DNA of 64,000 bases, from sequence record MN850574.1; one strand, 5' to 3'. Shown here one piece after another: positions 18,881 to 21,995 of this stretch (positions are counted from its first letter, which is position 1; each line of letters begins with the position of its first letter). The notes below the pieces were generated by a model. It saw nothing but the letters and a program-made list of their open reading frames with translations. It was not told where the DNA came from and made no database searches. The position numbers were made by a program, and so were the translations under genes. This DNA comes from Escherichia phage kaaroe.

Positions 18881-18888
18881 TATTTATA
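18881..18888 (-). promoter_or_regulatory. T4-type late promoter motif TATAAATA (for gp18)
   Basis: exact motif on minus strand overlapping 3' end of gp17. Confidence 0.45.
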
Positions 18889-20263
18889 TCATTGTTAGAC
18901 CTTCACGCGGCCTATATTCTTCGATGCCGTTTGCACCGTCATATATTACCACGGGCGCGTATTCTTCCCCCAATTCATCTAATTCCTTTCGGAATATTTC
19001 GGAGGCGATCCGCATTTCGTCTTTTCCTGCATATTCGGCGAATTTTTCTTGAGTTGTTAACCAACCAAATATTACCAGACTCATGACCAAATCATCGTGA
19101 AAACCTTCTTCTGCCGCCCAGCTTACCCCCTTCTCGGAGAATGTGCGCAACTCCTGAATAGTTCCTTTATGATTAATGATCAGCTTATCTTTTTCTATTA
19201 AGTCTTTTAGTGCCGAACATCCCATTGCTTTAGATCTTTTGGATTGTTTCATCCCTAGATCTATGAATGAGTCGCAAATAATATTATCATATTCAAGATC
19301 CATCGCAAGAGACTTAGCAATAGATACACCCGTACTATTTAGCTCGATATAAACTGGACATTCGTTATACATCATGAGATATTTAAAGACAATATCCGGT
19401 AGTATAAAATGTGACGTAGTATTGCTGTGATATACTGCAACCTGCTTATAAGGAAATTCAGTAATATCAATGATTTGCAATGCATGATAGTCCTGTCCTC
19501 GACCCTCTGAGCAATCTAGTGTAGCAACATATTTTCTACCTTCTTTCGGTTTCTCAAACTGATAAAACCCGTTATCATTAACAACGTCAATAAAGGATAA
19601 TCTTGATAGTGTGGTTGCCCTGATCAGAGTACCGGAACTACCGAAAAATTCAGCGTTATGTTCCTGTAAGAATTGCTCAAGACTAGATCCGGCGATCGCC
19701 TGAGATGACCACTCATAACCATCATCGAATATATCAGCTTTATTGTAAAGACGTTCTTTAACAGAATGCCAAACCGCCTCATATGGAACATAACCACTTT
19801 TACCATCAATAGCCGATTGCCAGATATCATAAAAGTGATTAAGCCCGTTAGGAGTCGTGGTCATGATCATTTTAGATTCACGACCGGAAGAAATTACTGG
19901 TTGAATTGCAAGGAAACAATCCGTCCAGTTTTGAATAAATGCGCAATTGTGAGATTCTACATTGTTTGTAGTGTAATGGTTGCCATCGGCAACATTAGTT
20001 AGATCGTATAAAAAGTCTTCACCAACATAATCTTTACTAATGACAGTAAGGCCGGAAGACGTAACGAATCCAGCCTCTATATCATCGGCTTCAATAAAAA
20101 AGCCGTCACTTGATTTTAATTTATGGCTTTCTGAGCATTCAAGGTATGATCCATCACTAAATGTTAGTTTCCAGATCATACCAAATGTTTCTTTTATGCC
20201 ATCAAAATCTTTAAAACCGTTTTCGGTGAGAACTTCGAATCCGTCAAGATTCCAAAAGTTCAT
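18884..20263 (-). CDS. 17: terminase large subunit gp17, C-terminal piece: intein-like C-region (blocks B, F, G; aa 1-106) fused to gp17 nuclease domain (aa 107-459)
   Basis: aa 107 onward ([25 protein letters not shown]...) collinear with T4 gp17 from its ...DCAFIPNF segment; N-terminal 106 aa end in [23 protein letters not shown] followed by Cys. Confidence 0.8.
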
Positions 20264-21233
20264 TAATATAATCCTCGTGAATATATTCGAAAGTATATCC
20301 GTTTTCTTTACACCATTCTATAGCGGCGTGTTCTTTCGCCATTGTTTTTGGGTCTTCAACAAGTCGCTTAGGCTTAACTTCATAAACGATCTTATTATCG
20401 TGATCTACGAAGTCCGTAATATAAACGTGATTCTTTCCTTTAAATTTGTATGTAACACGAAGCGTTTCATATTCAATATTAACGCCTTTAGCTTTCATAT
20501 CTTTATAGAAAGATAGTTCCCATGAGCTACGAAAGTTATGACCATCATACTTAATGCGATTGTGATTAAGACGGTTAGTCGTCTTAGGAGTAAATTCACC
20601 ATTCAGAATACGCTGTTTAACTTGCTCGGACTGTTTAGCCCTTTGTTCGGGTGTTTTCTTACCGTTGCACTTTTTGCGCATTTCATCGCCGTTTTCGACG
20701 TATAGACGTTTCATTGCCTCGCCTTGTTTGGCGTAACCACATTTACGGCAAAGATAACCTTCATTTTTAACAGCATACATCCCACATTCTGGACACTCAA
20801 AACGACGGAAGATAACCATTTTTGATGATATTTTCCCTAAGCGCCCAGGCAATTTTTCTGTGCAGTAGTTATGGCATTTATCCTTATAGTATGGACCATT
20901 CTTGCTTAATTCCACACGACAACCACAACCTTTCGTAGAGCAAACGGGACGATCCAGAATATCATTTGTTACACATGCGATAAACTCTCTCATGGATTCG
21001 GTTTTATGAAAATGTGTGTCGAAAAACTCTTTGTATTCTTCCAACATATCCATAGTTACGCCAGGAACCCAACCGCGAGTCAAGTTTGGATTTTTTGCGT
21101 GCGGCAGTAATAACTCTTTAATTTTATTCAACTTTTGCTGAATAGCCATCATCTTAACCTCTAACATAGTGTATTCTTTAATCTCACCTGTTAGTTTATC
21201 ACGTAGTGTAACTTTGGTCAAGCCGCTAACGCA
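19946..21233 (-). mobile_element. intein-like insertion with Zn-ribbon plus gp4-like nuclease module, interrupting gp17 after Walker B (IYIDE|C)
   Basis: about 1.29 kb absent from T4 gp17; starts with C-V-S-G-L-T-K-V (intein block A-like), ends with ...SHN|C; in-frame stop at 20244-20246 and frame change between the two halves. Confidence 0.7.
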
Positions 21234-21995
21234 TTCGTCAATGTAGATAAACGAGAACGAGTTACCACGCACGGCATCAGGAGACGACGCATAAGCACCA
21301 ATACTTGAACCGTTTTCAAGAACAATTGATTTCTTGTTCCATTCAACAATACCGGGCTGTAAGAAGTCTGGTAATAGTTCAATTGCTTGTTTAGTACGTT
21401 CTAGAACCTCAACTGCCATTGATCCTTTGTGTGCCAGTATACCTACCGCTTTGTCTTTATTAAAACAAACGTAGTGAGCGAGGAATATTGCTACAGCGGT
21501 AGTTTTCCCTAGCTGACGACTGAGTTTATGTGCGCTCATGCGGTTTTCATGCATGATCTTAAGCATATCTTTCTGATAATCACGCAATTGTACTTTGATT
21601 GTACCGTAGTCGATGTGTGTAATTGCGCAATAGGTTTCGGCAAAATACACAATATCTTTACGGCATCGTTTCCACTCTGCGATCATTTCAGGGGTATACT
21701 GAGTTTTAATATTCGCCCTTCGCAAGTTCTTTAATCGCATATACCGCGTGCGAATATTGTCACTATCTTTAAAGAACTTATAATTTGTTGGATCTGTACT
21801 TTGCATCCTTATTTTCTGCGGTCTGTTTAATTTCAGATAGTCAGAAAACTTTTTAGGATACCATTTATCATCATGCTTTGATAAAATCCATTCAATGCCG
21901 TTTGAATCAATTTTAGTTTCTAGTGTAGACGGATGCGCTAAATGTAGCGGGTGTTCATCCGTCGCCATTGCGTTAATCCCTTCAATCACGCTCAT
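20244..21995 (-). CDS. 17: terminase large subunit gp17, N-terminal piece (ATPase domain aa 1-254) fused to intein-like N-region, Cys-rich Zn-ribbons and gp4-like nuclease domain
   Basis: aa 1-254 collinear with T4 gp17 (SRQLGKTT Walker A, FIYIDE Walker B); downstream 329 aa contain multiple CxxC pairs and GHNFRSSWE...EVKPKRL similar to gp4 (42463-42936). Confidence 0.8.

Follow-up and report, generated by a model that had tools for sequence, protein, structure and literature searches.

The large terminase gene of Escherichia phage kaaroe carries a putative atypically split intein with an in-frame nuclease domain

RESULTS

Gene 17 is divided between two overlapping reading frames

The window analysed in this study is a 64,000-nucleotide (nt) stretch of DNA from Escherichia phage kaaroe (record MN850574.1), an RB49-like Krischvirus. 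Its gene 17, which encodes the large terminase subunit (TerL, gp17), lies on the minus strand and consists of two open reading frames (ORFs) in different frames that overlap by 20 nt (Table 1). An initial annotation of the locus had described this layout and proposed that the gene was interrupted by an intein-like element; its ORF coordinates and lengths, the overlap and the position of the ORF1 stop codon all hold. It had also placed the end of the gp17 similarity of ORF1 at amino acid (aa) 254, and the same boundary was obtained from alignment with RB49. Pfam Terminase_6N positions 5-106 were matched by ORF1 aa 159-256 and positions 107-213 by ORF2 aa 109-219, after which Terminase_6C follows, so that the profile is divided cleanly between the two ORFs at position 106|107. 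The N-terminal TerL segment (N-extein) has Walker B with the catalytic Glu at its end (...FSFIYIDE), and the C-terminal segment (C-extein) begins with a Cys (Cys+1, CAFIQNW...) and contains the remaining ATPase domain and the RNaseH-like nuclease domain.

When compared with the intein-less RB49 gene 17 (1824 nt), the whole arrangement of 3112 nt aligned with a single clean insertion of 1288 nt, which provides the comparison with insertion-less relatives that had been suggested. The borders of the insert read ...ATT GAC GAA | TGC GTT ... CAC AAT | TGC GCA TTT; its first codon is Cys255 (TGC), its last two codons encode His-Asn, and the next residue is Cys+1. When ORF1 aa 1-254 are joined to ORF2 aa 107-459, the resulting protein of 607 aa has 0 differences from RB49 gp17, in agreement with the predicted product of about this length. 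The initial annotation had also likened the junction to that of T4. The continuous DE|C junction is indeed present, although the T4-type sequence, as found in Tequatrovirus HY03, is IYIDE|CAFIPNF and not IYIED-C. A GAGG(A)-like motif directly precedes the ORF2 ATG in 8/8 loci compared. The T4 late promoter motif TATAAATA was not found in gene 17 or in its 200-nt upstream stretch.

Table 1. Features of the gene 17 locus (window positions) and dN/dS, the ratio of nonsynonymous to synonymous substitution rates, by segment
Feature	Residues	Position	Strand	dN/dS	Remarks
ORF1		20244-21995	(-)		583 aa, 68 kDa; stop 20244-20246
ORF2		18884-20263	(-)		459 aa, 52 kDa; ATG 20261-20263, in +1 frame
ORF1/ORF2 overlap		20244-20263	(-)		20 nt, from ORF2 ATG to ORF1 stop
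TerL N-extein	ORF1 aa 1-254	21234-21995	(-)	0.03-0.055 (exteins)	RB49 gp17 aa 1-254; part of Terminase_6N
Fixed synonymous site, GAT->GAC	ORF1 Asp253	21237	(-)		4 nt from insertion point
N-terminal intein half (IntN)	ORF1 aa 255-285	21141-21233	(-)	0.04	Cys1, block A/N1, beta-hairpin, helix start; CatN homology
Helical module	ORF1 aa 286-350	20946-21140	(-)	0.06	AlphaFold2 helices, pLDDT (per-residue model confidence) 85-95; kept in nine tails
Zinc module 1	ORF1 aa 351-380	20856-20945	(-)	0 (zinc modules)	C352, C357, C378 invariant; fourth ligand position variable
Zinc ribbon 2	ORF1 aa 398-422	20730-20804	(-)	0 (zinc modules)	C401-x2-C404 ... C416-x2-C419, all four invariant
PD-(D/E)xK nuclease domain	ORF1 aa 470-583	20247-20588	(-)	0.085	E493, D528, E539, K541
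Shine-Dalgarno sequence GAGGA		20272-20276	(-)		8 nt upstream of ORF2 ATG, inside last nuclease codons
C-terminal intein half (IntC)	ORF2 aa 1-106	19946-20263	(-)	0.015	block B (His47), block F (LYDLTNV), block G (His105-Asn106)
TerL C-extein	ORF2 aa 107-459	18887-19945	(-)	0.03-0.055 (exteins)	RB49 gp17 aa 255-607; rest of Terminase_6N and Terminase_6C

The insert encodes both halves of a predicted intein

Only block A is located on ORF1, and blocks B, F and G are all found on the 106-aa IntC. These motifs, which had been noted as intein-like, are real and conserved in homologs: Cys1, the block-B His (ECSESH, His47), the block-F Asp (LYDLxxV), the His-Asn pair and Cys+1 are invariant in all of them. 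ORF2 aa 1-106 matched PDB entry 6DSL chain B ('Consensus engineered intein CatC') over nearly its full length (E=5.5e-13). A profile of IntN segments had 6DSL_A, CatN, as its best PDB match (E=0.0024), and the end of CatN aligned with ORF1 aa 285, which leaves an IntN-homologous region of about 31 aa. We also built a family profile from the sequences of a HMMER search together with the reconstituted window intein. In PDB, this profile matched CatC (2.5e-24), gp41-1 (1e-9), VidaL (2.7e-6) and a DnaX mini-intein (9e-6), as well as RadA and DnaB inteins.

The HMMER search for IntC-like proteins returned 760 cluster representatives at E<=1e-3. Among the best 150 of these 760, 71 had a simple layout in which one IntC-like region occupies the extreme N-terminus; in others, the region is internal and is preceded by C[VI]xGxT... 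directly after ...DE. These are contiguous mini-intein alleles in other TerLs, inserted at this DE|C position, for example in a 739-aa T4-like TerL (P0134) and in P0136. The nucleophiles, the His-Asn pair, the blocks, the PDB similarity and the restored host protein all fit a class-1 intein with a HINT splicing domain, and we predict that the insert is of this kind.

ORF1 runs on into zinc modules and a nuclease domain

ORF1 is open from aa 255 to aa 583 without a stop, as are its counterparts in 8 divergent homologs, among which no Met is kept after IntN. Beyond the short IntN, the ORF1 polypeptide continues for 298 aa (aa 286-583). An AlphaFold2 model of this tail was made from nine tails (mean pLDDT 80.8). 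It begins with IntN strands at tail residues 7-11 and 18-22 and a long helix, and continues with the helical module, zinc module 1, a low-confidence linker, zinc ribbon 2, helices and an alpha/beta nuclease. The 'several CxxC pairs' reported initially are present as cysteines but form two Cys4 modules, of which zinc ribbon 2 gave a weak match to Pfam Zn_ribbon_3.

The four catalytic residues of the nuclease domain (Table 1) were aligned on the segments FRSGLE, PDF and VETK and are all invariant; both the intein and the nuclease catalytic residues are unchanged across tails that are 36-81% identical. The domain matched Pfam PF08722 (Tn7_TnsA-like_N) with 36.6 bits (cutoff 26.5) and, with the tail alone, PF05367 (Phage_endo_I) at a marginal 29.9 bits (cutoff 29.1). 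Its sequence also matched T7 endonuclease I chains (6e-4). The E...D...E-x-K constellation and the restriction-endonuclease fold identify it as a PD-(D/E)xK nuclease of the TnsA-N / T7 endonuclease I type. The EDxHD motif of a Vsr-type active site, with its His general base (as in I-Bth0305I), was not found in the domain.

The window also encodes a homolog of gp4, the head completion protein (42463-42936, plus strand), which is a strong Pfam Tn7_TnsA-like_N member (4e-21) and has RSSWE / DF / EVKP motifs in common with the intein nuclease. A resemblance between these two proteins had been pointed out before. Both belong to PF08722, but since they are 26% identical (BLASTP E=3e-6), the kinship is at the family level and is not orthology.

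Two in-frame ATGs of ORF1, Met282/Met283 (window 21149-21154), are located directly after the IntN-homologous region and are preceded by GAGG. Initiation at this site could yield free nuclease. Because these codons are not kept in divergent homologs, such an internal start is unlikely to be essential.

The layout recurs and exists in several allelic forms

Among 66 phage records that matched window DNA, most have an uninterrupted gene 17 of 1824 nt, and 5/66 have the full insert. The identical two-ORF layout, including the overlap, is annotated in JK32 (Ireland), phiS (China), TB34 and SAP. In G2494 (Germany), the locus is colinear without indels, but its only annotation is a misc_feature, 'similar to large terminase protein'. 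The tail is also present in GoldenSnicker and in Shewanella phage Thanatos-2, and the layout is present at six divergent metagenomic loci. In the metagenomic T4-like contigs and Thanatos-2, ORF1 homologs are 43-66% identical, and a TerL-N/long-tail ORF overlaps an IntC/TerL-C ORF; because the fused form is spread across hosts at this level of identity, it is not a momentary accident. The overlaps among homologs are 4, 13, 13, 20, 29 and 35 nt, with ORF2 in the +1 frame at some loci and in the +2 frame at others. This pattern fits independent, coupled initiation of ORF2, as judged from these comparisons. Since the same layout recurs in other isolates and in divergent loci, a sequencing artefact is excluded, which settles the frameshift check that had been proposed for the overlap.

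A three-ORF form was found at the same site in Tequatrovirus and Tegunavirus phages (HY03, SG1, phiR1-RT, TG1, PspYZU05 and others). It consists of TerL-N with a 41-aa IntN and a stop, a 199-aa endonuclease with its own ATG, and IntC-TerL-C. The endonuclease is 47-49% identical to the zinc ribbon 2 and nuclease part of the window tail. These loci are annotated only as terminase / endonuclease / terminase, and our literature search, whose coverage was incomplete, found no paper that recognises them as split inteins. Public annotations of the loci described here label them as duplicated or pseudogenised terminases, and these labels should be corrected.

Further variants were observed around this intein. 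A natural deletion in a Logan contig (ERR2814661; locus L014, 3001-5582) has lost the nuclease domain: its ORF1 (377 aa) stops after zinc module 1, and in the 90-nt gap between the ORFs a remnant of the nuclease 3' end is left, from which IntC-TerL-C still obtains its Shine-Dalgarno sequence and ATG. Because this variant keeps the split, the nuclease is suggested to be dispensable for the split arrangement. In a 778-aa metagenomic protein (P0254), a homologous zinc and PD-(D/E)xK nuclease is fused N-terminally to IntC, and a second short IntN-like segment (ECVASDTEIELYD) leads into a GIY-YIG domain further downstream. Two other metagenomic representatives (P0213 and P0230) have an HNH nuclease fused N-terminally to IntC. 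In two ENA VALL22 scaffolds (L008, 4001-7196, and L009), the ORF1/ORF2 homologs contain 14 and 16 in-frame stops under translation table 11, at positions where the called protein (P0092) has Gln. The scaffolds appear to represent a T4-like phage that recodes stops to Gln and has nevertheless retained the split intein and the fused nuclease.

Two close ORF1 relatives from RB49-like phages, P0002 (914 aa) and P0003 (803 aa), have a second intein in the TerL N-fragment. It is located inside Walker A (SRQLGK|ALDVNTP...IPTHN|TTAVAIF), is not present in the window, and contains a LAGLIDADG domain in P0002 and none in P0003. P0082-P0091 (829-833 aa) and P0086 (938 aa) apparently have only the Walker A intein. 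Just past gene 15, G2494, TB34 and SAP (L004, L005 and L006) carry an extra homing endonuclease gene, annotated as 'group I intron endonuclease' or 'homing endonuclease', and gene 15 of G2494 is annotated in two pieces. In the window, gp15 and gp14 adjoin (22503-24103) with no endonuclease insert.

Selection on the element and its movement between backgrounds

The dN/dS values in Table 1 were calculated for the window and phiS, the most diverged pair of close copies. By this measure, purifying selection acts on the splicing and nuclease parts as strongly as it does on the exteins. The insert and its surroundings have discordant histories. The window and JK32 differ at 6/1288 nt in the insert and at 87/1062 nt in the C-extein. 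The window exteins differ from those of intein-less RB49 at 3 (N) and 4 (C) sites, and from those of W115 at 8 and 1. Such a pattern would be expected after homing with short co-conversion or from divergence of the target site. These comparisons suggest that the element was transferred recently between diverged backgrounds. In 12 alleles, 161 extein sites are variable, and just one of them separates the 5 intein-plus from the 7 intein-minus alleles as a fixed difference. This is the synonymous change at 21237, which is probably a co-conversion or target-site marker.

DISCUSSION

A mobile split intein as the preferred explanation

We consider it very likely that gene 17 of phage kaaroe carries a mobile, atypically split class-1 intein of the AceL-TerL/GOS-TerL/Cat family, which would rebuild gp17 by trans-splicing and is accompanied by a homing nuclease. 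The predicted intein is positioned between the Walker B catalytic Glu and the following Cys. A split intein with the nuclease as its homing module was one of the possibilities raised initially, and it gains support from the homology to solved inteins, the precise junction, the invariant residues, the selection estimates and the presence/absence polymorphism, in which insert and exteins have discordant histories. In the proposed mechanism, IntN would dock into IntC and complete the HINT fold. Cys1 would then undergo an N-S acyl shift, the N-extein would be passed to Cys+1, Asn106 would cyclise, and an S-N shift would produce a seamless 607-aa gp17 (69.6 kDa) equal to that of RB49. The by-product would be a two-chain 'intein' composed of IntN-nuclease (38.6 kDa) and IntC (11.9 kDa). 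In a mixed infection, the nuclease would cut an intein-less gene 17 near ...GAT GAA|TGC... (in RB49, ...ATCTACATTGATGAA|TGCGCATTT...), and recombinational repair would copy the element into the cut gene, resulting in homing. As to its origin, we suppose a fractured gene in which the endonuclease, without its 5' flank, came to be in frame with IntN and the 3' overlap was retained, supplying the start of IntC.

Several points weigh against this explanation. Both splicing and DNA cleavage at this locus are deduced from sequence. Scans with Pfam and NCBIfam, in which both ORFs, the tail and an artificial IntN+IntC fusion were used as queries, detected no Hint family for the window sequence, so that the Hint similarity anticipated by the initial annotation was not obtained from Pfam for the window itself. 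However, Pfam Intein_splicing was matched by 8/9 family members, and these matches together with those in PDB override the negative scan. Natural atypical IntN fragments described so far are short (15-41 aa), and the C-terminal appendage of 298 aa might be incompatible with assembly, although long loops are tolerated in contiguous alleles at precisely the point where IntN ends. Finally, the evidence for homing is comparative and comes from few genomes, and we regard it as supportive but not decisive.

The division of gene 17 can also be explained without splicing or without a true split. The TerL fragments might work without covalent joining, with the intein halves serving only as a non-covalent dimerisation module, as in Aeh1 NrdA. 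A precedent is a phage enzyme that is reported to be split by a homing endonuclease gene (HEG) and to assemble without splicing (PMC3045599, cited in PMC10448857). In gene 17, however, the break falls inside the ATPase core directly after the catalytic Glu, the splicing residues from Cys1 to Cys+1 are all invariant, dN/dS is 0.015-0.04 in IntN and IntC, and homologous inteins are reported to splice, all of which makes assembly without splicing very unlikely. We give still less weight to the idea that the protein itself is not split, in which case the 20-nt overlap would contain an error of sequencing or a site of programmed frameshifting and the precursor would be contiguous and cis-splicing, with a nested nuclease. 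ORF2 is in the +1 frame, the overlap contains CTT TTG G, and the fusion would resemble an ordinary bifunctional intein. Nevertheless, independently deposited genomes repeat the layout, and no slippery site is conserved. Divergent loci vary in overlap (4 to 35 nt) and in frame, and the GAGG(A)-like motif and the ATG are always present. The ORFs of L014 are 90 nt apart, and those of HY03 and phiR1-RT are three in number and separate. Given this lack of conservation in frame and overlap length, we reject both the error and the programmed frameshift, although a minor frameshift product may be made alongside the separate ORFs. An RNA intron (group I or II) with an endonuclease ORF would be another way to interrupt the gene, and terL of ICP1 phages is indeed intron-interrupted (PMC10448857). 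We rejected this candidate, to which we assign practically no probability: Rfam gave no match at E<=1 in 18700-22200, coding is continuous through the insert, both of its borders coincide exactly with intein motifs, and it shows homology to solved inteins.

The remaining alternative accepts the split intein and its splicing but holds that the fused nuclease has lost its role in homing, having decayed or been co-opted for a gp4-like or resolvase-like activity. The nuclease shares its Pfam family with the gp4 homolog of this phage and with T7 endonuclease I, which is a resolvase. Decay of the homing endonuclease (HEN) is predicted by the homing cycle, and the L014 variant has no nuclease domain. 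On the other hand, the E-D-ExK residues and the conserved zinc cysteines are invariant with dN/dS of 0-0.085, the element appears to have moved recently between diverged backgrounds, and the same nuclease is also found free-standing and as an IntC fusion beside this intein, as is typical of a mobility module. Loss of the homing function is therefore unlikely, if less so than the alternatives above, and we retain the explanation of a mobile split intein with a putatively active homing nuclease.

A broader proposal can be advanced only tentatively, and we think it is somewhat doubtful as a whole. The IntN-nuclease fusion may be a long-lived, selected architecture and not a transient one. It may be the first natural HEN attached covalently to one half of a split intein, here at the atypical block A/B site, and the first intein HEN of the TnsA/T7-endonuclease-I type. 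The spliced-out chains might stay together as a heterodimeric homing enzyme, which would couple the release or activity of the nuclease to terminase maturation.

The atypical TerL split inteins that we found in the literature (AceL-TerL and GOS-TerL) are metagenome-derived and have been studied as protein-engineering tools. The same intein family is now found in Escherichia coli phages that can be grown in the laboratory and for which nearly isogenic intein-free relatives are available (RB49, W115 and others). The fused, three-ORF, contiguous mini-intein and nuclease-deleted alleles form a natural series that covers almost every step of the gene-breaking and HEN-capture model of Dassa et al. 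This series is tractable for studies of in vivo trans-splicing of an essential enzyme, of homing and co-conversion, and of the effect of a bulky domain on the assembly of a short IntN.

Relationship to known systems

The initial annotation had regarded the arrangement as undescribed for T4-like terminases. This does not hold for the split itself: a gp17 broken between blocks A and B was described in 2009 (PMC2677866), and AceL-TerL, GOS-TerL and Cat followed later. Only the IntN-nuclease fusion and the nuclease family appear to be new with respect to the literature that we searched. The locus appears to be of a known kind, a fractured gene with an atypical TerL split intein, and its novelty appears to be limited to the in-frame fusion and the type of nuclease. 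According to a 2025 preprint, the HEN types associated with inteins are LAGLIDADG, HNH, Vsr-like and a newly reported endonuclease VII-like type, and GIY-YIG is counted elsewhere in the same work. We found no account of an intein whose HEN is of the TnsA/T7-endo-I type, of a HEN fused to IntN, or of the present coliphage loci, in a search whose incomplete coverage means that this is not proof of their absence from the literature.

In canonical bifunctional inteins such as PI-SceI, the HEN, usually of the LAGLIDADG or HNH type, is nested between blocks B and F of a single chain. Like these inteins, the window element has its splicing domain and its putative homing nuclease encoded on one transcript, and splicing is predicted to set the nuclease free. 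In contrast, its nuclease is placed between blocks A and B with a fusion at one end only, and the intein consists of two chains. The nrdA gene of phage Aeh1 is reportedly in pieces as well, being split by the HEG mobE without any intein, and its fragments are said to assemble non-covalently. The two cases are alike in that an essential gene of a T4-like phage is split by an endonuclease gene whose 3' end overlaps the downstream half; they differ in the split intein, which is present only in the window.

The characterised atypical TerL split inteins, AceL-TerL, GOS-TerL and the consensus Cat, are reported to trans-splice (PMC11766414). They share with the window element (for Cat, 6DSL) the TerL host, the split site, class-1 chemistry with Cys+1 and homology of both halves, and the IntC is of similar length (104 aa in these inteins and 106 aa in the window). 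The main difference is in the IntN, which is a peptide of 25-37 aa in these inteins (PMC11766414) but carries a further 298 aa in the window, where the N-precursor ORF1 does not end with the short IntN as is usual in the family. The three-ORF loci of the HY03 type have the same insertion site (IYIDE|C ... SHN|CAFIPNF) with homologous IntN, IntC and zinc-ribbon nuclease; there, however, the nuclease ATG overlaps by 14 nt, and the helical and zinc 1 module is absent.

The closest published description is that of Dassa et al. 2009 (PMC2677866), who defined 'fractured genes' and reported a gp17-like Terminase locus (GOS, Lake Gatun) with a split intein 'fractured at an unusual point' and a long C-part. 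The gene 17 locus of phage kaaroe falls within their definition of a fractured gene. Both loci involve a gp17-like myovirus terminase, an unusual break point and an endonuclease gene between the halves on the same strand, and in both the C-part has all N motifs except N1. In fractured-gene loci generally, the ends of endonuclease genes often overlap the starts of IntC, by 6-69 bp (PMC2677866), and the overlap of the endonuclease 3' end with IntC in the window is of the same kind. In contrast, the endonucleases in the 2009 loci are free-standing after a stop and 27-51 nt of non-coding sequence and are of the GIY-YIG or Vsr-like type, whereas in the window IntN reads without a stop into the helical, zinc and TnsA/T7-endoI-like nuclease modules; the 2009 locus also came from an assembly of metagenome reads and the present one comes from a cultured coliphage. 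In the published model (PMC2677866), loss of the flanks of the endonuclease gene could place it in frame with the intein (step IIIa), and the gene 17 locus corresponds to the half-fused state that this model implies.

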